Of a stretch of 64,000 nt of DNA, positions 1,872 to 63,493 are shown in pieces; position 1 is the first letter of the stretch; each line of letters begins with the position of its first letter. The stretch lies in contig NW_019218608.1 in assembly GCF_002571385.2 (NCBI RefSeq), forward strand, positions 1-64,000, read 5' to 3'. This DNA comes from Stylophora pistillata (Eukaryota). A program made the translations under genes and the position numbers. Under the pieces are notes generated by a model, which made no database searches, was not told the DNA's origin, and saw nothing but the letters and a program-made list of their open reading frames with translations.

Positions 1872-4588
1872 GGCCGCGATAAAAAAGGTTCCATTTTTGT
1901 CTTCGCTGCTGGAAATGGAGGAACTATAGCAAAAGACAGCTGTGCATACAATGGTTACGTTAACAGTATCTACACGATTGCTATCACTGGATTAGACAGA
2001 GCTGGATCAGTTCCTTCATATGGAGAGGTTTGTCCAGGAATTATGGCGGCAGCGTACAGCAGAAATACGTTCGGAGAAAGGAACCCGCTCGTGAGTAGTT
2101 TTACCGTATAAAGACAAATTCCTCCGATAAATTTTAAAGATGGTACTTGCAGTGCAGTTCTCTATTTTCGTCATAAAACTTGCATCTATAATTCACTTTA
2201 TCCAGCTTCGNNNNNNNNNNNNNNNNNNNNNNNNNNNNNNNNNNNNNNNNNNNNNNNNNNNNNNNNNTTGTCACTTGCCCATCAGTAAATGTTCTTCAGG
2301 TTAGGTAAAGACGGATCATACTGCGTTAAAAAAAGGCAATAGCTTTTCCTCTGTGTGCTATTTTCTTTGTTTATAAGTGACTCTTCTTTATCGGAGCAGA
2401 TAATTTCAGACATTTGTTTCCCCCAAACTTCGTCGGGTATCTTCTATTCTCATTTTCAAGTGTATTTTGAATCTCTTCACCTTATTATTGAACGTTGAGC
2501 GCGTCGGATATTTTCTGAGAATGCATCATTCTTCTCCTTTATTGAATCTTTTCTTTACGTTTGGTGAAAACTGTTCACGGGCCAGCATGACTTCTGCCGG
2601 GCGTTTAGTGTAATATGAATAATTTTGTCCGCAGTTGCCTCATGTAAACAAAAACAGAGACGCGTTTTACTAAGATCCTTTAATGACTGACCGATTACTT
2701 AACTGATTCTCAATTTTTATCACTGACTGCTGAATTACCTGTCGAGTTACCAATTTGGAGCTTAAAACTGACTATTAAATCAAGTGATATGTGCTTAAAG
2801 AAATCTGGGAATGAATTCATCAACGCACGGACAAGCAGAACAAATAGCCCTTTCTGCACTCACTTAAACTTTAATCATGTTTTATGATCATCCTCTTTTT
2901 CCTTTTTTAGTGACGAACAGAAAACTTCTGAAAGAGAAACAGTACATACCTCAATGTCTTCAAAGTGTGGAGACATTCGCCCTCTGGAGCACGTCCAAGT
3001 TCGTGTCAGCCTGGAGGTTTGGCTAAGAGAGGACCTCCTGCTAACTCTGGAATCACCGAGCAAAACTATATTTTGTCTTACACAACACGGGCCTATTGAT
3101 AGATTTTGGGGCTATTCGAATAATCTCACGGACAGGACCATTTTAACTTTACACCACTGTGGTGAAAATCCACAAGGCTTTTGGAAACTTAAGGCTGAAT
3201 TAGGCAGCAGAGGTAAGAGGACATCTTCCATTATTTTCAGTTCACAGATTGTGAATTAAGTTTTACCATAATTTTGTATGTTTTACTATTGTCTTTTTTT
3301 TATGAAAGCAAAAATGTCTCGAGTTTCTAAGTTTAATTGCTTTTATTTTCCTTCAATAGAAAAACACCGTTCAGCGAAGCTGCATAACAAATGAAAAGAG
3401 TAATCGATACCGCTCTTGAAACAAATCTATACAATTTCTTAAACTGACAGTCTGGCATAATGGGTTTAACGGAGTGCATCGGATCTGAAACCGCAAAACT
3501 TTCATGCACTTCGCCACCGGCCACAAAACGTTTACAGACGTTATTTTCGGAAGCTTCTCTGGAAAGAAACAGACGACTAAGAATGTCCGAAAAGGTACGT
3601 TTCTGTACGGCTGAGCTATCTTTCATGAAGGATGTCAAGCTTAATTAGCTTTTTTGCTGCGTTATGTCGCAAATTGCTTTGATTTCTTTTCTCAACGCTG
3701 TAAGAAAATGGTGCGAATGTAGCAGTGGCTTCTCGATTCTAATTGGCTGCTTTCGTCGTATGATTCTTTGATTGTCACCTTTTACTGGTTAAATTCATGA
3801 TTTTAGTCCGCAAAATACGTCATAGTACCAGAAAGTAACAATGATGTGCACTCTATCGCGGGTGTGGAAAATAGGTTCGTATTTAATTTATTTACGGCTT
3901 TTCAGTTTTTCTTTTTTCTTTCGAGTTTTAATGCAGAGAGATAAGTCGAGTATACAGTAAAGCGGTTCCCTCCTTAGCCGCTATCGACCGTACAAAATCA
4001 CGAAACAAAACAGTTACAGCGATTATATATTCGCGAGCGAGAAACATTTCTGTACATTTTTGTATAATATACCACGAACGTTGTCTTTGGGTAAATATTT
4101 CGAACGATAAATTTTCATATAAGCTCTACGATGAAACAGATAACAAGAAAAATACGTAAGTGCACAGAGAATAAAATATGAAACATTTACTTCTGATCAT
4201 TTTCTAAAAGGTTTCTTGCAGAGATCGGTGGTAGCAGCCGATAATGGGCTCTTATGCGTGGTTGTTTCGAAGTCACTTTACTATATTCTCTCCAATCCAC
4301 CGTCGGGTACTCATTTTGCTGATTCTCCGACGACCTTGCGTTTGAAATAAAAACACTGTAGATACCTAGGTGAAGGCCTGAAGCAATTAAGAACTGATTT
4401 TTTCTTCGAAAAAAATTTTTAACTGTGTGCCTCCTCTGCACACATAGGTTACGTCGGGTATATCGTTCAAGTTACCAGCAGATATTTTGCGAGGATGAGC
4501 ACCAATACTCGGATAAAGTTAATTGGCGTTTAAGTCAAACAGATGAACACGAGCTAATATCTGGTAAAAAGGGATGGTCATGTGGCAG
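1872..4588 (+). pseudogene. Kexin/furin-like proprotein convertase, decayed copy A (exons 1872-2090, 2911-3212, ~4442-4588)
   Basis: GRDKKGSIFVFAAGNGG...DSCAYNGYVNSIYTI exon plus a P-domain exon with RGD>RED, TDWT>TDRT and HWGE>HCGE relative to copy B. The next exon is deleted, and the last exon has lost its AG and has a 1-nt deletion. Confidence 0.9.
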
Positions 4589-6811
4589 GTAAGAACTAAA
4601 TGATAAACTCTTGACGTCTCAAGCGTTTTTGATGCACAACGTTTGGGTCTTCGGTCCTCTTCCGGTGGAACATTTTAAATTAACGAGTTACAAAAATAAG
4701 AAAGCTTAACTTCCTAAAGCGCTTAGAAAGTCGCTGATATTCAGAGTAGACCGGGAGGATGTACATTAACGTTCAGACATATACAATAAAAAAGAAAGGA
4801 AACACACACGAAGGCGCAAGCAGGGAAAACGCATCACTCTTACAGAAATGTCTTAAATTACAAAGTGTACTATAATTACTGAGCCACTTAAACAAATAAG
4901 ATTCTTCGATCTGAATTCGCGCCTTGAAATTTGAGTATTTATCACTGTACGTTTCTTCTTAGTAAAACTAATTTTGAGAATTCCTGCGTTCAATACAATT
5001 GGAATGAACTGCCAGCTCACTGTTTTCTTATTGTCGAGAGTGGATGAGTTATGGTTACGAAACTGTACAGTTTTTCATTCAGTTGATATAAATCTTACGT
5101 AGTACAGTTATCATTTGTTACACGATGGGTTGTACACGTTCATCTTCGATTGATCTTGCATGTACGTCTGTGCCAAAGCTCTAACAACTAGAGTCGTGGA
5201 TTAATAACTTCTTGTATAGGTCAGATCTTGAAGAGCATTTAAAACAATCTCCTATTTCTCCTTTTCCCTGATTCAACTTCTCTCCATCTTGGAGCTCATC
5301 CTGGAGGTTCAGTGTGCGTTCCGAAACATTGCATGTATGCTTCGAATGAACCGAACCAAATTCAATGGTTGAAAGTGTTACGGGAAAATTGAGAGATTTT
5401 TCCCTGTGGATGCTTAAGCATATTTATTCGTTGTTTTCGGAATCTTAGCATTCACAATTCATGCGAGTTTCTTTCATTGCGATTTTTTAAAAAGATAAAA
5501 AGCCACAGTACATTTTGAATAGTCAAGTTAAATTGTACAGCTGCATCTGCATACTTTTGTTGTTCAATTGTAGTGGAAATTTAGGTAAATATAAATGTTG
5601 ATGGTCTCTCTGACAAAATTAGTTCTCGTGGTAGTTGGAAGCTGAGTTTATACTCGAAATTTTAATTTCTTTTCATACGATAGTTTCCACATCAACCTTG
5701 CATAAATATGCAGAAACTTTTAATTACTTTTCCACTCTTATTTCCTAAGATGCGCTGCTGCAATGAAGATAAGTACACTTTCCATACCAGAGTTGTGAAT
5801 TCTCTCCTAAGTTTACTATTTTTAATGGCCTCGAGTTTATTGCATTCATCCTCTTAATTTGGAATTCTTTCCGTCGTAGAAAGAGTTGGGAACATTTAAG
5901 TAGTTTTCGTTTAACTTAAAAGAGATCTATACCGCTTCCTTTGTTCTGCTGTTTAAATATGGTCGATTTGGATAACAATAGAACCTCGCACCAGTTCAAT
6001 ACTTAAGTAACCACTTCGTAAAGGTTTTCCGATTACATCCTTGATTACAAACTTGTGTACGCTAGAGGTCACGTCGCTTGTTGGCCTGACCTTGAATAAA
6101 GTTTACTGTGGAACCGAACGCTGTCTCATCCTTGACGTCCGTATGAGCTCACTCGAAGTAGTTCTCCGTTTACCAGGAAATCGTGATGAGTTTCCGTTCT
6201 CGCTGCCGAGTGGTCTCTACCGTGTTATCTCCCCCAGTTATTGTTGTGCCGTCCGCGAAGGTTCAGTTTTTCCAGTTAGCACGCGAAAAACTATCGTCAC
6301 AAAAAAAATTGATGTACTCGAAAAACCCTCTCTGACACTTAAAGGAAACTACCTACAATGCAGTATCCAGACTGGCGATCGACTCATCGATAAATCCCAC
6401 AGCTAAACCAAAATAACTGCATCGGTTTTAGGGGCCCATTGCCGTTCCATGAAAATCGACAATTATTGGTATGCGGGCAAACCAAAGCTCGAGAATAACT
6501 GTAAGTTTCGAGGAACATGTAATGTCCAGCGGCAAATATACTAGCATACTTTCGCTCAGCATGGGGGCTGTTGTGTTAATTTCCGTCAAATATTTTATTT
6601 TTACAGCGAGCGCGACGAAAAGTTTAAATTACGAGTAAGAAGTGTTCCACTGAGTTAATGTCTGCAAACCTTGAAGCTATAATTCTCGGCGTGCAGCGGA
6701 GAATGTTGCAAACATTCACGCTCAATTACTTCGTGTGGTTTCTCCGAAAGGCGGATAAAACCGATACAAAATTCTCGCTTGTGAAAAAAATCGTATCAGC
6801 ATTCTCTTTAT

Positions 6812-7106
6812 TAATGAGAAAAATCGTATGACCAATGGGACTACTTCTCATCAAAGAGAGATGATTTTTATTCGATGAGTTTGCACTGAGTAAATCTCAG
6901 TACACTTTCTATGTGCAACTCTCTAAAGATAGCCGAGGATATGTATGTATATTCCCTATTATCAAGGAAGAGTGAACTCCTCGGCTTTCTTTAGAGAGTT
7001 GCACATAAAAGGTGTACTGAGATTTATTCAGTGCAGACTAACCAAATAAAAGTCGTCTCTCTTTGATGCAAGTAGTCCCATTAGTCATAAGATTTTTTCT
7101 CATTAA
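6812..7106. repeat. Long inverted repeat (~130-bp arms, ~36-bp spacer); paralogue at ~62880-63205
   Basis: The arm taatgagaaaaatcgtatgacc...tctctaaagatagccgagga is the imperfect reverse complement of tcctcggctttctttagagag...tttttctcatta. Confidence 0.8.
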
Positions 7107-7449
7107 GAAAAAAAAACCGTTTTCTATCAAACCTTTCAACTGAAAAAAAGATGCATATATTTCATACATATTATTAAATTGCAACGTTTTCGAAAACAGG
7201 TGTATGTGTATATACCTACATACATACATCCATATATACCTATATACAAGAGTCTCTCTGTTTACGTCCTTCATATTTATCCTTGCTTCATGCACTCCGC
7301 GGCTTAATAAAGGAGACTGCACTCCAGATCTACACAGCCCTACCGGCCACAACAACCAACATATTATATTCTCATGGTTTCGTTCTACCTTTTATCGTGG
7401 TAGATGTCTTGGTCAAACCTTCAGTGTACGACCGCTACTTCACATTAAG

Positions 7450-7527
7450 TCAAACCGGAAATATCACAGCTCTGCATTACTCTTATTCTTAATTGCGAGT
7501 GGTGATGTGGAACTTAACCCTGGCCCC
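7450..7527 (+). other. 2A/StopGo ribosome-skipping peptide motif (LLLFLIASGDVELNPGP)
   Basis: Exact D-V-E-x-N-P-G-P consensus at 7504-7527, preceded by a hydrophobic helix and in frame with the PLE N-terminal region. Confidence 0.8.
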
Positions 7528-8339
7528 ACGTCGACACTTCCGAAAGGGCTTCCCTTTGAGTGCACCAAAGCTGTTTGGCAACTACATCGGCTACATGCAA
7601 AATTAATTTCGAGTGAGCTCCATCAACATTTTCTCTTACTGTACAAGAGCCATGACATCACACCACCGGGTCTAACTGTAAAATTAACACCACTAGTCGG
7701 ATCTACAGACCTCCTCGATCAATGGAATGACGCTACTAAGGAATGCTCAAACCGTTTAATTGACCTCCTCGTTAAATCACACAAAGCTAAAAGCGTGACA
7801 CAGAAATCAAATCGAGAGTAAAGAAAATATCCTAACCGATAAATTGTCAACGTCACAACTTGAAGTACTTAAACACTGACTTCAGTTTCAAAATGAGAAT
7901 ACTCATCGATTCTTGACCTCAAGAAAACAAGAGAAACTTCACCAAAACATTGCCCTGCAAAAGTCTAAAGTAAGTAAACACAAAACACCTTCATTGCCCA
8001 CACCTATATGTAATGATTATCGACCCTAGGATGCCTATTCATTTACGTCACCTTCATCGGCCTCAACATCACACAATCGCCCAGGACCGAAAAAAGCACA
8101 GCTAAACCGTAAAAAATCTACTCCACTGATGCATGGAAATCATCAAGTTAAACGCAGAACCCACAGANNNNNNNNNNNNNNNNNNNATTTCATTATTTTA
8201 TTGTTACATTCCAGCGGGTAAATTTTAATTTTAATTATTCTTAGCATTATACCACTTTTCTGGGATTTGATGTAAAACATTTTTATTCCACGTATTGAAG
8301 ACTCTTTCATTGCTTGTAAATCTTACTTCTTATTGATAT

Positions 8340-8384
8340 TTAGTGCTGAGGAAGCCCGAATGGGCGAAACGTACACGTATTAAA
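8340..8384 (+). ncRNA. Minimal hammerhead ribozyme motif of PLE pLTR (copy 1)
   Basis: CTGAGGA-A-gccc gaat gggc-GAAA-cgt ac acg-TA; stem I is weak. Confidence 0.7.
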
Positions 8385-8548
8385 GGCCACAAGAGAAAAG
8401 TTTGCTTCTTCTTCTGTTTATTCCACTTATCGTCATTTAAGAAGGAAGCATCCTGTATCCTTTGGATCCTTTTCTCGGTGGAATCATCGTTGGTTAGCCT
8501 ACATCGTTCGAATTCACACTCCTATATATATATATATATATATAACTA

Positions 8549-8594
8549 ACTGCAGACAGTACTGTTTCGGCCTTCTGGGCCTCATCAGTGCAGT
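8549..8594 (-). ncRNA. Type I hammerhead ribozyme in a retrozyme-like fragment (8545-8715)
   Basis: Minus strand reads actgca-CTGATGA-ggcc cagaa ggcc-GAAA-cag ta ctg-TC-tgcagt. All core nucleotides are present, with a 6-bp stem I and palindromic stem III. Confidence 0.92.
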
Positions 8595-8877
8595 GCTAAT
8601 GCTAGGATGGGGGAGAACCGAGACGGTCACCCCAAACGAACCAACCTTTGTGGTATCGTCTAAGCCATGCCAGAGTGCTCAAACTAGAGTAAACCAGCGA
8701 GCATGCGCAATTGCATATATATATATATATACAAGTATATATATTGTAGTGTGAACGATGTAGGCTAACCAACGATGATTCCACCGAGAAAAGGATCCAA
8801 AGGATACAGGATGCTTCCTTCTTAAATGACGATAAGTGGAATAAACAGAAGAAGAAGCAAACTTTTCTCTTGTGGCC

Positions 8878-8922
8878 TTTAATACGTGTACGTTTCGCCC
8901 ATTCGGGCTTCCTCAGCACTAA
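8878..8922 (-). ncRNA. Minimal hammerhead ribozyme motif of inverted PLE pLTR (copy 2)
   Basis: Reverse complement of the motif at 8340-8384. Confidence 0.7.
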
Positions 8923-10503
8923 ATATCAATAAGAAGTAAGATTTACAAGCAATGAAAGAGTCTTCAATACGTGGAATAAAAATGTTTTACATCAAATCCC
9001 AGAAAAGTGGTATAATGCTAAGAATAATTAAAATTAAAATTTACCCGCTGGAATGTAACAATAAAATAATGAAATCCGGTGATGAGGTGGTGTTAATTAT
9101 ACCGAATCCTTTTCCTAGAATTGAACTCACACCTTTTAGTGAGACCGTGTGGTTTGAGTGTACATAGTTGGGCACACCAAAATGAAACGCCTCCCTGGTA
9201 AGCAGACGATCATCCATGCTATTATTGCTAGCGTTAGAGTTACGAAACTGTTCAATAATTAAAAATTCGAAATCTGTTAAAGTATGGGTCAAATCCATTC
9301 TACTGCCATGGGCCCTAAGAACGCGTGTAGTTTCGCTGATCTAGCCATGGGAATTATGATAAAAAAGCCAAGTTAGGGGAAATGAAACCCAACCTGTGGT
9401 GGAGGTACAGCGACGAAATTTTTTATCTCTGGTCCCAAGGGCATCCCAAACTTAATGAATTCACCATCTTTATCAATTCTCTGTATCCCACCATTAAAGT
9501 TACTTTAGTTTAATCTCCTAATTCACTGAACGTATTAGACCTTACTCTTAATTTGCTGAACAGGTTATTCAGACAGATAGTTACTCTTAACCCACGGATA
9601 ACCATATGTACTTGCTACGGAATAGTGCACATTCTGCTCATGTCACCAGGGCCATTCCGTATGGAGTTGCGACCAGACCTCGAAGGAATTGTTCCAGCGA
9701 TGAGGCGTTTGATAAACGCTCCTCTGAGTATCAGGGTTATTTACATAACCGAAGTTCTAACCCCAGTTTGGTTTCACAACAATTTAAAGGAGCCCAGCCC
9801 ATCCCTAGAAAAACATTGCTCCATCCTCAACCCAAGAAGTCCAAACAAATCTTTCCACTGGTGCTTGATTTTAACCCCCGCCTACCCAGCATTGGAAAAA
9901 TTATCAATAAGCACAAGTATCTCATTTATGATTCACCATTTCTTAAAAACATTTTTCCGGTAGGGTCTATCATTCCAGCTTTTCGTAGAACTAAAAACAT
10001 AAAAGAAATCTTGAGCAGTAAGCCTCGTCAACAACATCGCGCCCCAGATAATCAGCGGGGTTGCTTTAAGTGCAAATCCAAATGCGATCTTGGTCAAAAT
10101 TATTTGAAGGAAACGAATTGTTTCACTAGCACAGGCAAGAAGTATCCCATCACGCAGACAGTTGGCTGCAAATCCAAAAATGTAATCTACCTAGCAATAG
10201 TAGCATGGATGATCGTCTGCTTACTAGGGAGGCGTTCAATTTTGGTGTGCCCAACTATGTACCCTCAAACCACACGGTCTCACTGAAAGGTGTGAGTTCA
10301 ATTCTAGGAAAAGGATTCGGTATAATTAACACCACCTCATTGCCGCATTTCATTATTTTATTGTTACATTCCAGCGGGTAAATTTTAATTTTAATTATTC
10401 TTAGCATTATACCACTCTTGTGGGATTTGATGTAAAACATTTTTATTCCACGTATTTAAGACTCTTTCATTGCTTGTAAATCTTACTTCTTATTGATCAG
10501 TAT

Positions 10504-10548
10504 TTAGTGCTGAGGAAGCCCGAATGGGCGAAACGTACACGTATAAAA
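10504..10548 (+). ncRNA. Minimal hammerhead ribozyme motif of PLE 3' pLTR (copy 3)
   Basis: ctgaggaagcccgaatgggcgaaacgtacacgta at 10510-10543. Confidence 0.7.
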
Positions 10549-10665
10549 GACCACAAGAGAAAAGTTTGCTTCTTCTTCTGTTTATTCCACTTATATATAT
10601 AATTGGCAAACTTATATATATATAATTAGCAAACTGGCTCAAGACTTCAGAGGTAATTCATCGTT

Positions 10666-20599: not shown

Positions 20600-23500
20600 A
20601 TTTTTTGCTTATTATTAGCTCAGTTGTTCCGCATAAGAAGAATTATTATTCGTCTAGGAAAACCACGAGCCATACCGACATCTCAAATGGCTTCGAATTA
20701 AGGTACAGGGTTGATTTATTGGACTTTTTACGGAGTCGGGAGGAATCCAAGTCAAGTTAACAAAAGATTCTGGCGAACGAACAGAGCCTTTTGCAAGATG
20801 TCTAAGTGGGGCTCTACATGCCTTGCTATTCCTGGACACGACCCCCTTCTAGATATTACTGTTTTCCACGATATTCCTAAGAATCCAGGTCCTACATTTC
20901 CTCAAGACTTTAACTTTTCGGACATTTGCAACAACGAGCCAGGCTTGAATTTACATATTGGCAACGAACCGGGCGCCAATTTGCATATTGGCAGTGAAGG
21001 ACGCACTCCATTGATCGCATACTCTCGTGAGAAGTTGTTGCAATTAAGATCTTCAAGCAATGCGCTGGTATACACCAGTCCCAAGATTTGAGGGACTGTA
21101 ACATCTTAAGGAAGGAAAGACTAAGAGCTGGCAGGCTGGTTCGTTTCAGGAAATTCAATGGGCATAAACGGCGAAATTTTATAACTCTAACTTCATCAAC
21201 AGAGAGTCCCACTGCTCGTGTAAACAATACTGTCTGTGAGCGTCCTGATACTGCCAGCTCTTTTAAGAGGTGTCAAGGCGGTGTTGACTGGAAAAATTTA
21301 GCGTGTGTTAATATAGGATCATCTTCTACAAGATTATTTCCGGTTCCTAAGAGCCTATTCCGTAATACCTGTAGTCTCGAGAAGATAAAGAATAGAGTAC
21401 GAGCATCTGCAGCTCTGACGGTAGATTTTCGATCGTGGGAAATTGACGTTGGTGTTATTTCAGAAACGCATCTTTAAAGACAGAAACCTGACAGTATTGT
21501 TGCTATCGAAGGGTATACAATATATAGAAGGGGCAGAGATTGGGCCGGAACTGATAAGCGAAAGAAAGGTGGAGTTGCAGTATATGTGCGGGAAAACTTA
21601 AAGGTCTTGGATGTTAATCGTGAACGCTCCTTCGAGAGGCTGAGTGTGGAATTACTATTTCTGTCTGGACATCATATACTTATCACTGGATTATAGCATC
21701 CCCCAAGTTTTCAGTATGATGAAGGCGATCTTATTGATACCATCATTGATCGTTGTGATACATTCTTAGACATGTATCCAAATGGTGTAGTACTCTGTGG
21801 AGGTGATCTGAAGCGGCTAGATCTGGACTGTCTTTCCACTTCATCTGGACTAGTGCCTATGGTGAATCTCGCCACTAGAGGGTCTCCCATCTTGGATAAC
21901 TGCCTCACAAACCACCCTGAGCTGTCCAACGACCCTTTACGCTTTGAAGCGCTTATAAAAACTGACCACTGGGGCGTAATACTTCCTCCGGGGAATAGAA
22001 TTAAACCATTTCGATCTAAATGCTGTTTTAGGGATTTTAGAGAGCATCACAAGATCAAATTTACCTCAGAGTTAGAATTTTTTTGATTGGACACTTGTGA
22101 TCAGTGCTCCAGATGTTGAAGTGGCAACTAGCATATTAAACAGGGAACTGCGCAATCTTATGGATAAGTGTTTCCCGGTGAGGAGAGTTGTGATGTCTTC
22201 ACGTGACCCCTACTGGATTACTCCACTAATTAAATATCTTCTAAGGAAAAAGAAAAGAGCTGCTGATAAGGGCCATATTCAAAAAGTGGGGGACTTGTCA
22301 TCGAAGGTCTTCAAGTTGATTGGTGAAAATCGAAAAAACTTGGGCAGGAATGGAGCACAGGGGAGTTTGCACTGGTGGAGGAGAGTGGACAAAATCACCC
22401 TAAGGAAAGAGAAACCTCAGCTATATTTAGAAAAGGAATTTCTTGCTGGTCTTAATGATCATTTTGGGGACGTATATAACGATGAGAACTATGTCAAACC
22501 AGTGCCTCTCAGGGTAAACCCCGAGACACACACACCCCCAAAGCTCCACGAATTTGAAGCGATGATGGCATTATCAAAGATTAAAAAAACCGCTACTAGC
22601 CCTGATGGGTTGCCTTTTCGGGTTTTGAGGGACAATTGCACAAGTCTCGCTCCTGTGGTGACTGCTTTGTGGAACAAGTCTCTGTCCTCTTACACTTGGC
22701 CGACAGCTTGGAAAGAAGCTAACATCAACCCGTCCCAAAGGTAGACACTCCTGTTCAATATTTGGATTTTCGGGGAATTAATGTGACTCCAGTTATAGCA
22801 CGCTGTTTTGAAAGAACTGTATACCATCATTACAGTAAGAAAGTTTTTGAGGAAAATCTGACCTTCACAAAATATGCCTAAAGGGAGGGCTTCATCCTTA
22901 CAGACGCCTCGATTCAGATACAGCATAATTACTTAAGGGCACTTGATGATAAGGATTGTAATTATGTTAGGCTTTTTGCGATGGATTTTTCGAAAGCCTT
23001 CGATAATGTACAGCAATTGTTAGTAGGGAAAAGCTAAAGGCTATTCATCTCAATCCTTATCTTGCCAACTGATACTTAAGTTTTCTAATGGATAGGAAAC
23101 AAAGACTAATATTTAAGGGTTTTATCTACAAATTGCATAATGTGAACAAAGGAACAACCCAGGGTGATGTCAGTGGGCCTCATCTTTTCAATTTTTTTAT
23201 CAACGATTTAGCTATTAGTGATAGTGACTTTACCAGCATAGTTAAATATGCTGACGACACTACCTTACTAGTCAAAGTATGTAAAAATGAAATAGATCAT
23301 TCTCAAGAGGTTGTCAATCAGTTTCTCAGTTGGACCCAAGATAATGCCATGGCATGTAATCCCAAAAAATGTAATGAACTAATACTTTGTAAGAAGGTTG
23401 CTCGTGATGTAGACCCTGTAAACAATATCACGCAAGTTTCTTGTTTAAAAGTGTTAGGGGTTACTTTACAGAGTATTCACAGGTTTAATGAGCATATTAA

Positions 23501-24070
23501 GGATAAGCTGCAAGAGGCCAATAAGTGTCTTTATGTGATAAGAAGTTTGCGCAAAGAGGGATATCAACAACCAGATGTAGATTACGTTTTTAGACCAATT
23601 GTTTTACCTAAACTAACGTATGGTCTATCCATATACGCTTCCTCAATACCTGAATTAACAACGGTCCAGAATTTTCCACAGCGCTGCTTTAAACGCAAAT
23701 ATATTTCGAACCAAATTGATATATATATATAATGTATTAGAAGAGGTTGATCGCTCACTATTCAAGATTCAAAAAGATCTCCAGTATGCCTGGTCACCCT
23801 CTGTACCCTTCTGTCCCTAAAACGAGAGAAAGCTCAGCGCGTCTCCGAGTTCCTAGTAGTCAACTCCCTAGGGTTAACACCCAGCGTTTAAAAAATGGTT
23901 TTTTTAATAGGCTCTTTTTTAAATATAGAGTAGCTATCTAATGTAATGTTTTATATTATGTAATGTTGATAGCCTTGTAATTATTTTTATGTAAATTTTC
24001 TTGTTTTAGCATGTATTTTTGCTTAAAAACAATAAAGACCTATTATTATTATAATTATTATTATTATTAT
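20600..24070 (+). mobile_element. Near full-length degenerate CR1/L2-group LINE (APE + RT)
   Basis: APE motifs ISETHL, KKGGVAVYV, GGDL and TDH. RT motifs FRGINVTP, DFSKAFD, GTTQGDVSGPHLF and YADD. 3' aataaa plus (TAT)n tail at ~24031-24070. Many frameshifts. Confidence 0.92.
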
Positions 24071-46493: not shown

Positions 46494-49246
46494 TGGGGGA
46501 GTATGGGAAGTATGGGGTGCCAGGGAGTGGTAGTACCTCTGACGGGGAGACATGTCGCACCCTCTGGGGTGGTCCATCCACTTTTGTCCGCACCTGGAAC
46601 TCAACTCTCACCTGTGGCTCCAAGTAGCTGTGGCATGCGCAGCGGCCACACCCCAGCAAACCATTTCGACAGGCGGGCGAAACCAGGTGAGGGTAGCCGT
46701 CAGGTCTAAAACCCTCGGTAAACTAGGGAATGTCTACCCAAGCATGTGAAGACTGAACCCGGCCGACTGGGCGGAAGAGATAATCTGATCCAACGGCTAC
46801 GAAGGCGGCGACAGCAAGGTGTTGTAGAGCGCCAAGAGCACGACATGACACAGAAGACGTCGGGGTCATCTACTGCAGCCAAAGAAGCTTCCGGTCGTGA
46901 CGTCTCTACGTACCACTGGAATTCAGCTTCCTAGGCCGAGAGAAGAGGGATCACCCGCGTGTAACGACCCTCCCAATATAAACAACCTCATGCACAGGTT
47001 CTCTATGTGCAACTTTTTCTGAACATCTCAACTCTTCTTCTGTATCCCGCTATCGTCAAAGTCCTACGGCGATGGGGAAAGGGCGAAGCAACAGGTGGAG
47101 GAACCCACTGGCAGTTGTAGCTCCAGCCCTGCATATAGGCGGCCTGGAGGTAAGAGTCGCTCTCCTTCTGACCCTGGGACAACAGAAGAGTTCGGCGTTT
47201 TCTCAGGTGACTGAGCAGCCCTGTTTAGGATAGCACCGCTCACCCTCCAATGAGGAGGAGACTAGAAAAGGCGTCTCAAACATTGCTTGTCCCATCACCT
47301 ACTGGCCAGTCTACCGCGGCTGGCAGTGTTACCCCTTTTGCGGTCGAAACACAAAGAGAATGAAACAGATGATTTTCGGAGCATGAATCGTCCGAACACT
47401 TATGGACAGGGAAACTTCAACAATGCCAGAGAGGAGAACAGCCCTTGTTGCAAAAGAACTGTCACGCTACAGGATCGACATTGCCGCACTCAGTGAAACT
47501 AGGCTAGCAGATGAAGGATCCGTTGCTGAGCTCAAAGGGGGATACACCTTCCTCTGGAAAGGCAAAGCTCAAGCCGAAGAAAGAATCCATGGAATAGGTT
47601 TGGCAATCAAGACATCAATTCTGGAGCAGCTGCCAGACCTCCCTTCTACCATCAACGAACACCTAATAGAGCTTCGTTTTCCACTAAACGCCTTCCGACA
47701 TATTACAATCATCAGTGCATACGCACCAACAATGACCAGCAGTGATGAAGCAAAGGAAACCTTCTATGAGGATCTGAATAACCTTGCAAAGGATGTACCC
47801 AGCGGAGATACACTCTTACTGCTGGGCGACTTTAACGCAAGAGTCGGCTCTGACTACACAAACTGGTATGGCGTGCTGGGACCACATGGAATGGGGAAGA
47901 TGAACTCCAATGGTCTGCTACTTCTGAGCCTATGTGCAGAGAACAACCTGACAATCACCAACACCCTGTTTCGGCAAGCTGACAAGTACAAATCAACTTG
48001 GATGCATTCAAGGTCCAAACAGGGGCACCTGATTGATTACATTATCTGCCGCAGACGAGATGCTAGAGACTTCAGGATTACCAGGGCCCTGCGAGGAGCA
48101 GAATGTTGGACTGACCATCGACTCGTCATATCTGCCGTCAAGCTCTACATCGCCCCCACTCGTCAGAAGAAGCCCAAGCTCATCCGACCGTCATTCAACA
48201 TCGCCAAACTCAAACATTCAGACCACCGAGACCACTTTTTGAACAGCCTGGACGACAAGATGACCTCCCACGGACCACTCTCTGGAAGCCCTACACAACA
48301 ATGGGACCAGTTTAGTTCGATGTTGAAGGAGTCAGCTCAGTCGATACTTGGTCCAAAGAAGAGAGTGCACCAGGACTGGTTCGATGAAAATGATCAAGCC
48401 ATCACTCAGCTCTTAGACGAGAAGCAGAAGGCATTTGTGGCCTGGCAGAATGATCTTCCTCCATCTCTAAGCGTGATCACTCCAAACACCTTCAGCACCG
48501 AGCCCAGACCACCCTACGCCACATGCAGGATGAATGTTGGAAGATCAAGGCCCAAGAAGTCAAACTATGGGCTGATATGAAAAACTCGAAGATGTTCTTC
48601 AGCACCATCAAGGCAGTGTACGGACCGTCCCGGCCTAACACGACCCCTCTCCTGTCAACAAATGACGCTCTACTGAAGGAGAAGAACGCCATCAACGAAA
48701 GACGGAGGGAACACTTCAACATCCTTCTCAACAGATCCTCTACTGTTAGCAATGAATCACTGGACCAGATCCCTCAGAGACCCACAATAGACAGCCTCGA
48801 CCTCCCTCCCAGCATGGAGGAGGTCCAGAAGGCCATCAAGCAGACCAGCTCAGGAGAAGCCCCCGGCGAGGATGGGATCCCTGCACAAATCTACAAGGCT
48901 GCAGGACCAGTGACCCTTAACGCCTTCCACAGCCTCCTCTGCAGCATATGGGAGGAAGAGGACATTCCCCAGGAGTTCAGAGACGCCACAATCATCTCCC
49001 TGTACAAAAACAAGGGCAGCAAATCTGACTGTGGCAACTACCGGGGCATATCACTCCTGTCTATTGCTGGTAAGATCCTGGCGCGCATCATCCTGAATCG
49101 CCTGATCTTCAACATCTCTGAGCACAACCTACCAGAAGCCCAGTGTGGATTCCGTCCAGGCCGCAGCACAACTGACATGATCTTTGCGGTCCGGCAAGTA
49201 CAGGAGAAGTGCAGGGAACAGAATATGGATCTGTATGCAGTATAAC
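46494..49246 (+). mobile_element. RTE-clade LINE (5' UTR, APE, N-terminal RT), cut by assembly gap
   Basis: GA*IVRTLMD...ALSETRL...LLGDFNARVG...IDYI...TDH (APE) and CGNYRGISLLSIAGKILAR...QCGFRPGRSTTDMIF (RT). One frameshift at ~48460. Empty site at ~51988 in the paralogue. Confidence 0.95.
46565..46694 (+). ncRNA. Candidate HDV-like ribozyme in RTE 5' UTR
   Basis: P1 ggggtg/cacccc, P2 ctctcacctg/caggtgaggg, P3 tggc/gcca, L3 beginning tcc, and J4/2-like gcgaaa. L3 is unusually long and P1.1 is imperfect. Confidence 0.45.
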
Positions 49247-63442: not shown

Positions 63443-63493
63443 ACTGCACTGATGAGATCCACATAGGTCGAAACAGTGTGCACTGTCTGCAGT
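63443..63493 (+). ncRNA. Type I hammerhead ribozyme (second retrozyme-like variant)
   Basis: actgca-CTGATGA-gatc cacata ggtc-GAAA-cagt gtgc actg-TC-tgcagt. Confidence 0.9.

Follow-up and report, generated by a model that had tools for sequence, protein, structure and literature searches.

Could a Penelope-like element (PLE) use a virus-like 2A peptide to detach the head of its own protein during translation? This question is raised by a stretch of 64,000 nucleotides from Stylophora pistillata (contig NW_019218608.1, positions 1 to 64,000; hereafter, the window), in which a model reading the letters alone had noticed a 2A-like motif followed in frame by a segment resembling the N-terminal region of Penelope/Neptune ORFs, and had proposed that ribosome skipping would free the reverse transcriptase-endonuclease (RT-EN) protein from a hydrophobic leader. 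As a whole, that interpretation is partly supported by the present analysis. The reading we favour, with a probability of about 55%, is that a Neptune-type PLE ORF is headed by a leader of about 96 residues, composed of a signal-like N-terminus, a variable spacer and a Leu-rich class A 2A, which would act at NPG/P (the slash marks the predicted skip site); the leader would be released in part of the rounds of translation, and the RT-GIY-YIG protein would be leader-free and scarce.

Is the motif present, and to what does it belong? On the plus strand, SSALLLFLIASGDVELNPG/P is found at 7468-7527, in frame within the open frame 7144-7821. The stretch encodes SSALLLFLIASGDVELNPGP, with the G codon at 7522-7524 and the P codon at 7525-7527, and the motif is therefore read in the open frame as claimed. 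The ATG at 7204 is in the same frame and was considered as the start of the element; it was rejected, since it lies inside a flanking microsatellite and homology to the sister copies begins only at 7247. The original prediction had likewise placed it in flanking sequence. The features of this part of the window are the following.

7204-7246, plus strand: flanking microsatellite, rich in TA/TACA; the sister copies have no match before 7247.
7247-8165, plus strand: dead copy of the 5' part of a PLE ORF, probably of Neptune type; 95% DNA identity to L005 and L006, both of which run into a PLE RT.
7247-7302, plus strand: rest of the hydrophobic, signal-peptide-like N-terminal helix, codons 4-22, as judged from the hydropathy of L006 and an AF2 helix at 5-21.
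7303-7467, plus strand: leader spacer, poorly conserved (mean pairwise identity 17%; pN/pS 0.54-0.88 between lineages).
7468-7527, plus strand: class A 2A-like 20-mer with a predicted skip between G and P, from the sequence motif.
7525-7801, plus strand: start of the predicted helical PLE N-terminal domain, which runs to ~7965 in a shifted frame (AF2 pLDDT 71-92 per 10-residue block over residues 101-240; homologues in PLE ORFs).
7801-7821, plus strand: deletion of 2 nt after 7801, which leads to a stop at 7819-7821; more in-frame stops follow in the family frame.
8168-8186, unstranded: N stretch, behind which the transition to the following element is hidden.

The window copy is dead, being 5'-clipped, frameshifted and stop-bearing. 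Its family homology begins ~10 nt downstream of the family ATG, and it is without these first ~10 nt of the ORF as well as everything from the linker onward. The 2-nt deletion is unique to it, the other three family copies being intact there. A long imperfect, MITE-like inverted repeat (6802-7115) lies directly upstream of the copy. Could the motif be a chance occurrence? In the whole assembly (G000), D[VIM]ExNPGP is encoded 171 times, against once for a reversed control pattern, and the motif recurs at the same place in diverged homologues; the window motif is thus not due to chance. As for the segment behind it, residues 64-169 of the protein P0035 match window 7474-7785 (E 2e-11), which identifies this segment as a PLE N-terminal region and agrees with the likeness to Penelope/Neptune ORFs that had been proposed. 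Pfam gave no domain for the window ORFs or for the N-terminal half of L006, and no RT of the family was found anywhere in the 64-kb window.

Then, to which enzyme does this N-terminus lead? A DNA search of G000 with 7246-8160 returned four places, namely the window and three other contigs, at 95-97% identity. Two of these copies, L005 and L006, reach further 5', where an in-frame stop is followed by an ATG ~10 nt before the point matching 7247. In L006, an ORF of 522 aa begins at the ATG, crosses a 2A site that is degenerate, and covers the pre-RT block of PLEs up to ADKG; L005 has the exact 2A motif and several 1-nt deletions, and can be followed as far as the RT aspartate motif. The RT, the thumb, a C2H2 finger, CX5CxxC and GIY-YIG with CCHH, the last being decayed in L049, come from copies at 92-95% DNA identity (L048 and L049). 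No complete element of the window copy's exact family was found in the assembly, and the C-terminal half is taken from these copies at 92-95% DNA identity. The C2H2 finger in the RT-EN linker has a Pfam E of 0.0015, below the cut-off, and the CX2-5CxxC motif between RT and EN takes the form CX5CxxC in L049 and CX4CxxC in P0034 and P0035. Across the 2A-bearing PLE clade, a classical C2H2 zinc finger is kept in this linker (L048:3172-3984; P0034 892-913; P0035 925-946).

The original prediction had also tied the 2A ORF, across the N stretch, to the RT and the hammerheads of the same window. This linkage was not borne out, and these parts belong to a different PLE family, with the following features.

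8187-10594, unstranded: another PLE family, with inverted and direct pLTRs, minimal hammerheads and a decayed RT-thumb/EN; it has no DNA match to the 2A family and lies on a separate branch of the RT tree.
~8339-8383, 8879-8923 (minus strand) and 10503-10547: minimal hammerheads of this neighbouring PLE.
9232-10190: its decayed RT-thumb/EN fragment.

The RT/GIY-YIG fragment beyond the N stretch (9232-10594) was therefore rejected as the body of the 2A element: it has no blastn match to the 3' half of the family, its RT/EN shares 29-42% aa identity with L049, and its RT groups with another genomic PLE at 100/99, apart from the 2A clade, with 22% of the columns filled. Between the inverted pLTRs of the neighbouring family lies a short unit with a hammerhead-like core (8541-8715), and the same unit occurs in nine tandem 245-nt repeats at L052:2229-4382, in a retrozyme-like manner.

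Do other PLEs carry the 2A and the enzyme in one chain? In a metagenome scan with alignment A1, at least 599 stretches were matched by the motif pattern, and four loci were confirmed, of which L083 and L084 are PLE relatives while L085 and L086 are APE LINEs that match through the motif only. L083 shows 72-78% DNA identity to the window family, and contains, in order, the last part of a GIY-YIG that lies upstream, a putative minimal hammerhead, an ATG-free stretch of 294 nt, the ATG itself, the leader, IASGDVELNPGP and the RT; its 839 codons from the ATG through the 2A to the RT, including YIDD, are free of stops (RVT_1 E 6e-12). A profile search yielded P0034 (1053 aa) and P0035 (1085 aa), in each of which a 2A-like motif, RVT_1, C2H2, CX4CxxC and GIY-YIG are present in one chain. 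Here Pfam gives RVT_1 with E 2e-8, and GIY-YIG with E 4e-4 and 6e-3, below the gathering cut-off, in addition to the CCHH motifs. A single ORF with a PLE-type RT is thus indicated by RVT_1 in L083, P0034 and P0035, by the ADKG and YIDD motifs, and by the copies L005, L006, L048 and L049. Consequently, the predicted contiguity of the 2A with PLE RT/GIY-YIG is found in relatives, as ATG-2A-RT in L083 and as 2A-RT-GIY-YIG in P0034 and P0035. The possibility that intact copies join this N-terminus to an APE-type LINE was considered as well, and the copies lead to a GIY-YIG PLE instead; such an origin was rejected, because the PLE N-terminal domain, RT and GIY-YIG follow downstream, with no APE. 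In P0001, a PLE without 2A, an OTU deubiquitinase domain is inserted between the N-terminal domain and the RT.

Taken together, the anatomy of the family is a pLTR with a putative minimal hammerhead, a ~294-nt leader without ATG, the ATG, the protein leader, the 2A, the N-terminal domain, the RT, the C2H2 finger, CX4-5CxxC and GIY-YIG. The 3' end of L049 is found again in L005 and L006, directly 5' of their ATG, an arrangement typical of pLTRs, and in L083 the upstream EN end is followed by the pLTR and then by the ATG; in the window copy, this part is clipped away. The pLTR has an open hydrophobic frame of ~70-90 codons without ATG, alike in both lineages (L083:~355-615 and L049:~3970-4170); in L083 this frame is in phase with the ORF, yet closed by two stops before the ATG.

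How well is the motif conserved? HMMER against 1.84 billion representatives gave 26 matches. Ten have the leader and the motif at the same place, six start inside the N-terminal domain, eight have unrelated N-termini without the motif, and the remaining two are one fused gene model and one repeat. Exact NPGP is found in seven of the ten leader-bearing matches, with NPSP, NPDP and NAGP once each; word-index searches with single queries gave 0 and 1 matches. Among 11 non-redundant sequences (the near-duplicates P0005, P0015, P0024, L006 and L084 being left out), the mean pairwise identity is 27% in the signal-like part, 17% in the spacer, 30% in the 2A helix, 76% in the 2A core and 39% in the N-terminal domain, figures that lean upward and are partly ascertained, since the motif was present in the HMMER query and L083 and L084 were found by the motif pattern. 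The 2A core is thus the best-conserved N-terminal block (76% vs 39%). Its G, D, N and both P are invariant in all 11 sequences, and the key Glu is kept in four lineages of the 11, being replaced by Q in three, by S in two, and by P and A in one each. GD(V/I)ExNPG/P is exact in the window, L005, L083, L084, P0002 and P0034, and degenerate in L006 and in the Q, S, P and A lineages. The check suggested in the original prediction therefore shows that the place of DxExNPGP is kept (10 of 26 matches) and that its Glu position varies. Between lineages, pN/pS is 0.30-0.43 in the 2A, 0.28-0.37 in the N-terminal domain and 0.54-0.88 in the spacer. The core codons of L083, L084 and the window are nearly identical despite a pS of ~0.5, and the spacer pS is low; an RNA-level constraint on the leader is possible.

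In an RT tree of 18 rows, the five 2A-lineage rows form a clade (97/97), in which two rows, L048 and L049, are placed by DNA identity and are both without their own N-terminus. The rows of this tree are all unnamed elements, and the placement in Neptune, as against Nematis, is putative. No 2A was found in the DNA preceding 20 PLE loci of this genome; two of these loci are clipped copies of the window family and 18 are other PLEs, many of them truncated.

What kind of leader precedes the motif? Of 14 2A-bearing leaders, 10 have a hydrophobic N-terminus (KD11 of at least 2.4), and none of nine related proteins without 2A does; the other four leaders appear clipped or frameshifted. The Gly of NPG/P is at residue 80-96 in those ten, and the maximum 11-residue hydropathy of the L006 leader is 2.45. 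The hydrophobic leader that had been proposed upstream of the 2A is therefore present, and by its hydropathy the N-terminus is signal-peptide-like. AF2 on A1 (mean pLDDT 70, pTM 0.55) predicts a low-confidence leader with helices at 5-21 and 74-87, a loop over G/P and a confident helical domain from residue 101, so that the G/P is predicted to lie at the border between the leader and the folded helical domain. Helix 74-87 (pLDDT ~54) ends at position -10, and active 2A-like peptides of eukaryotes are reported to have this same geometry (PMC13405545). Between -19 and -10, 5-8 hydrophobic residues are found in 14 of 14 leaders, and the window 20-mer has four Leu there. PDB sequence and fold searches gave nothing significant.

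Based on these features, the favoured reading may be spelled out. The N-terminal helix would engage SRP, taking the ribosome together with the element RNA to the ER. StopGo at NPG/P would free the leader in part of the rounds, and restart would give a cytosolic, Pro-started RT-EN that begins just before the first folded domain. Read-through and fall-off chains would be routed to the ER or degraded, and the dose of the enzyme would thereby be capped. A near-invariant NPGP exactly at a domain border suits such release with restart.

How would a peptide of this kind behave in translation? Published peptides provide base rates. Supplement file 3 of Snell and Matreyek (PMC13405545) holds 86 peptides ending in SGDVELNPGP, and according to our own tally of their classes, which come from an SVM on human-cell reporter data, 21 are skipping, 10 skipping with reduction, 3 fall-off, 13 fall-off with reduction, 20 non-skipping with reduction and 19 without effect. 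In other words, there is some effect in 67, release of the chain in 47, skip with restart in 31, lowered protein in 43, and 19 are inert. The nearest core match seen in these supplements, IAVIRMLLIASGDVELNPGP, is skipping with reduced levels, and some Q and S variants skipped too; neither an exact match to the window peptide nor a Penelope, Neptune or telomerase label was found in the supplement files searched (PMC13405545). Odon et al. reported that E-to-Q gives low activity and that E-to-S abolishes recoding (PMC3708506). For the 2As of RT elements, 7.4% are given as highly active and 56% as mid-range (10.64898/2026.09.24.754024). From the class counts and these screen figures, partial skipping with reduced output is the most likely behaviour of the window-family 2A. 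Some translational effect is probable; a productive skip with restart at NPG/P has close to an even chance; and a throttled protein output has about the same likelihood as clean skipping.

The same figures bear on another explanation, in which the 2A is mainly a brake: the Leu-rich helix would stall the ribosome, with fall-off or lower protein as the result, and the enzyme would be rare and often still leader-bearing. Peptides with 3-6 Leu tend to reduce output, as did 59% of the tested ORF2p peptides, and among the 86 same-core peptides 43 are in reduced-protein classes and 16 show fall-off only (PMC13405545). Down-regulation was proposed by Luke et al. for single-ORF LINEs (PMC3894237), and in the PLE clade the Glu is lost in seven of 11 lineages with the hydrophobic helix retained. 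However, the position of the near-invariant NPGP exactly at the domain border fits release and restart instead, and a retained signal-like leader would be expected to draw the enzyme to the ER, away from the DNA. We regard a peptide that is mainly a brake as rather unlikely.

Could the motif be inert in translation, and be kept as an RNA element of the 5' ORF or as a membrane anchor of the full-length protein? Between L083 and the window family, pS is 0.33 in the spacer, lower than the 0.60-0.64 in the N-terminal domain, and three lineages have almost the same core codons. In an Anolis PLE, the ORF has to supply its first 172 nt in the form of RNA (PMC11167929), and the 19 inert peptides of 86 (PMC13405545) point the same way. 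However, the amino-acid motif holds across lineages that are only 24-26% identical in the N-terminal domain, with a spacer free to change, and the 5' region folds no better than its shuffles do (z -0.65). An inert motif is improbable on this evidence.

What about the hammerhead? In L083, a putative minimal hammerhead core precedes the ATG by 294 nt, and the interval is free of any other ATG (P 0.0075 by mononucleotide shuffle, post hoc). Core and stems were seen by eye in L083 and in the read consensus, with a fold z of -2.6 and three of 200 shuffles as good. Rfam on the window recovered none of the PLE hammerheads; its sole gathering-level match there is Hammerhead_1 at 63443-63493. The original prediction had combined hammerhead and 2A in one element. 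This stands insofar as the family has its own putative minimal hammerhead ~294 nt upstream of the ATG, and fails for the hammerheads of the window, which are those of the other PLE family.

It had further been proposed that the element could be translated from hammerhead-cut, uncapped RNA or from host transcripts, with the 2A trimming anything upstream. The L083 core, by its place and its fold, is consistent with this. Nevertheless, a conserved ATG of the family's own follows an in-frame stop, and translation can therefore do without a host transcript; minimal PLE hammerheads cleave weakly, as dimers (PMC4209133); in the Anolis PLE, cleavage was dispensable in vitro, and reads with an end at the cut site were absent (PMC11167929); and hammerheads are present also in PLEs without 2A. 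Such a scheme seems to us a poor candidate, although a coupling of the 2A to hammerhead cleavage is conceivable.

As for transcripts, a contig from a polyA library spans L006 2538-4550, from the 5' leader to the RT, without a joint and with three 1-nt deletions, such contigs being no proof of transcription. At the site that is degenerate in L006, two RNA-run contigs carry variants that yield the exact motif. Across the stretch from ATG to 2A, four raw-read RNA runs, each sampled at 2-6%, gave zero depth, and at the pLTR end most of the covering reads came from other copies. The RNA data gave no sign of an intron that would take out the leader.

Where else does this genome encode such motifs? 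Among the 171 motif loci, 30 were looked at by eye, and none of them was PLE-like. In nine, a Met is found 60-125 codons upstream, and six of these open with a comparable hydrophobic stretch, mostly within APE-LINE-like frames. In about half of the 30, the frame that follows is Cys-peptidase-like (QCVAM...) or OTU-like and not an APE (L053, L056-L059, L061-L063, L068, L069, L073-L075, L079, L082 and L060). These are possibly of Helitron type, a label with side support from the PIF1-helicase match of a similar coral protein in the supplement. In the window itself, a non-canonical 2A-like DIPKNPGP (20882-20908) heads a decayed APE-type LINE (element ~20650-23750), and another LINE, which by eye resembles RTE, has its APE and RT frames at 47387-49245.

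The closest known systems are the 2As of APE-type LINEs (CR1, L2, Crack, Rex1 and Ingi/L1Tc; Odon et al., 2013, PMC3708506), which have in common with the PLE clade GD(V/I)ExNPGP, preceded by a Leu-rich helix and placed close to the N-terminal end of one long RT ORF, and a Glu that is variable in cnidarian members. The APE-type LINE copies of this genome have similar leaders of ~90-110 aa. In contrast to those elements, the host here is a PLE with a C-terminal GIY-YIG, pLTRs and a putative hammerhead, and the 2A site is 80-96 residues from the start, versus the ~40-80 reported for LINEs (PMC3708506). No homology of the PLE leader to a LINE leader was found in this genome, and DNA and protein searches of G000 for a recently captured LINE leader gave the four family copies only, with loose filters; such a capture was set aside. 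More tentatively than the favoured reading, and with considerable doubt, we suggest that a whole clade of Neptune-type PLEs has acquired the same head of signal peptide, spacer and 2A as the unrelated APE LINEs, and that SRP docking at the ER and StopGo release would constitute a convergent, membrane-coupled and 2A-metered RNP assembly, downstream of a self-cleaving hammerhead.

With the Neptune/Nematis EN+ PLEs, the family shares a single ORF with RT plus a C-terminal GIY-YIG with CCHH, the CX2-5CxxC linker, tandem pLTRs, a putative minimal hammerhead and insertion in TA microsatellites (PMC8557442, PMC4209133). It adds the signal-like leader with 2A and the classical C2H2 finger in the RT-EN linker, neither of which appears in the available portions of the descriptions by Craig et al. 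(2021) and Cervera and de la Pena (2014). In the sea-urchin NLRs, similarly, a hydrophobic N-terminus with a 2A could split secretory and cytosolic products; there the 2A itself is the signal, whereas the PLE clade, a group of transposons, has a signal-like helix distinct from the 2A and ~55 residues upstream of it (Roulston et al., 2016, PMC4981915). In the available text of Rao 2025 and of Snell and Matreyek (PMC13405545) no GIY-YIG was found, and in the main text of Li 2026 no discussion of retroelements.

No paper describing a 2A in PLEs was found in the literature searched, most subscription journals and Repbase Reports being outside that search. PLE RTs are related to telomerase. Therefore, some of the 'telomerase-like' RT contigs with class A 2A in 10.64898/2026.09.24.754024, whose main text is without Penelope, PLE or GIY, may be PLEs. 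What is described here is a conserved variant of a known device, genuinely present in PLEs and apparently undescribed so far, with a predicted function.

A head of signal-like leader and 2A has so far been described for a different class, the APE-type LINEs, and the translation and dosing of PLE proteins have been little studied. A conserved module of leader and 2A in a third class of retroelements suggests repeated convergence on the same translational control. Since intact relatives exist (P0034, P0035 and most of L083), the long-open role of the 2A and the leader in retroelements becomes testable.
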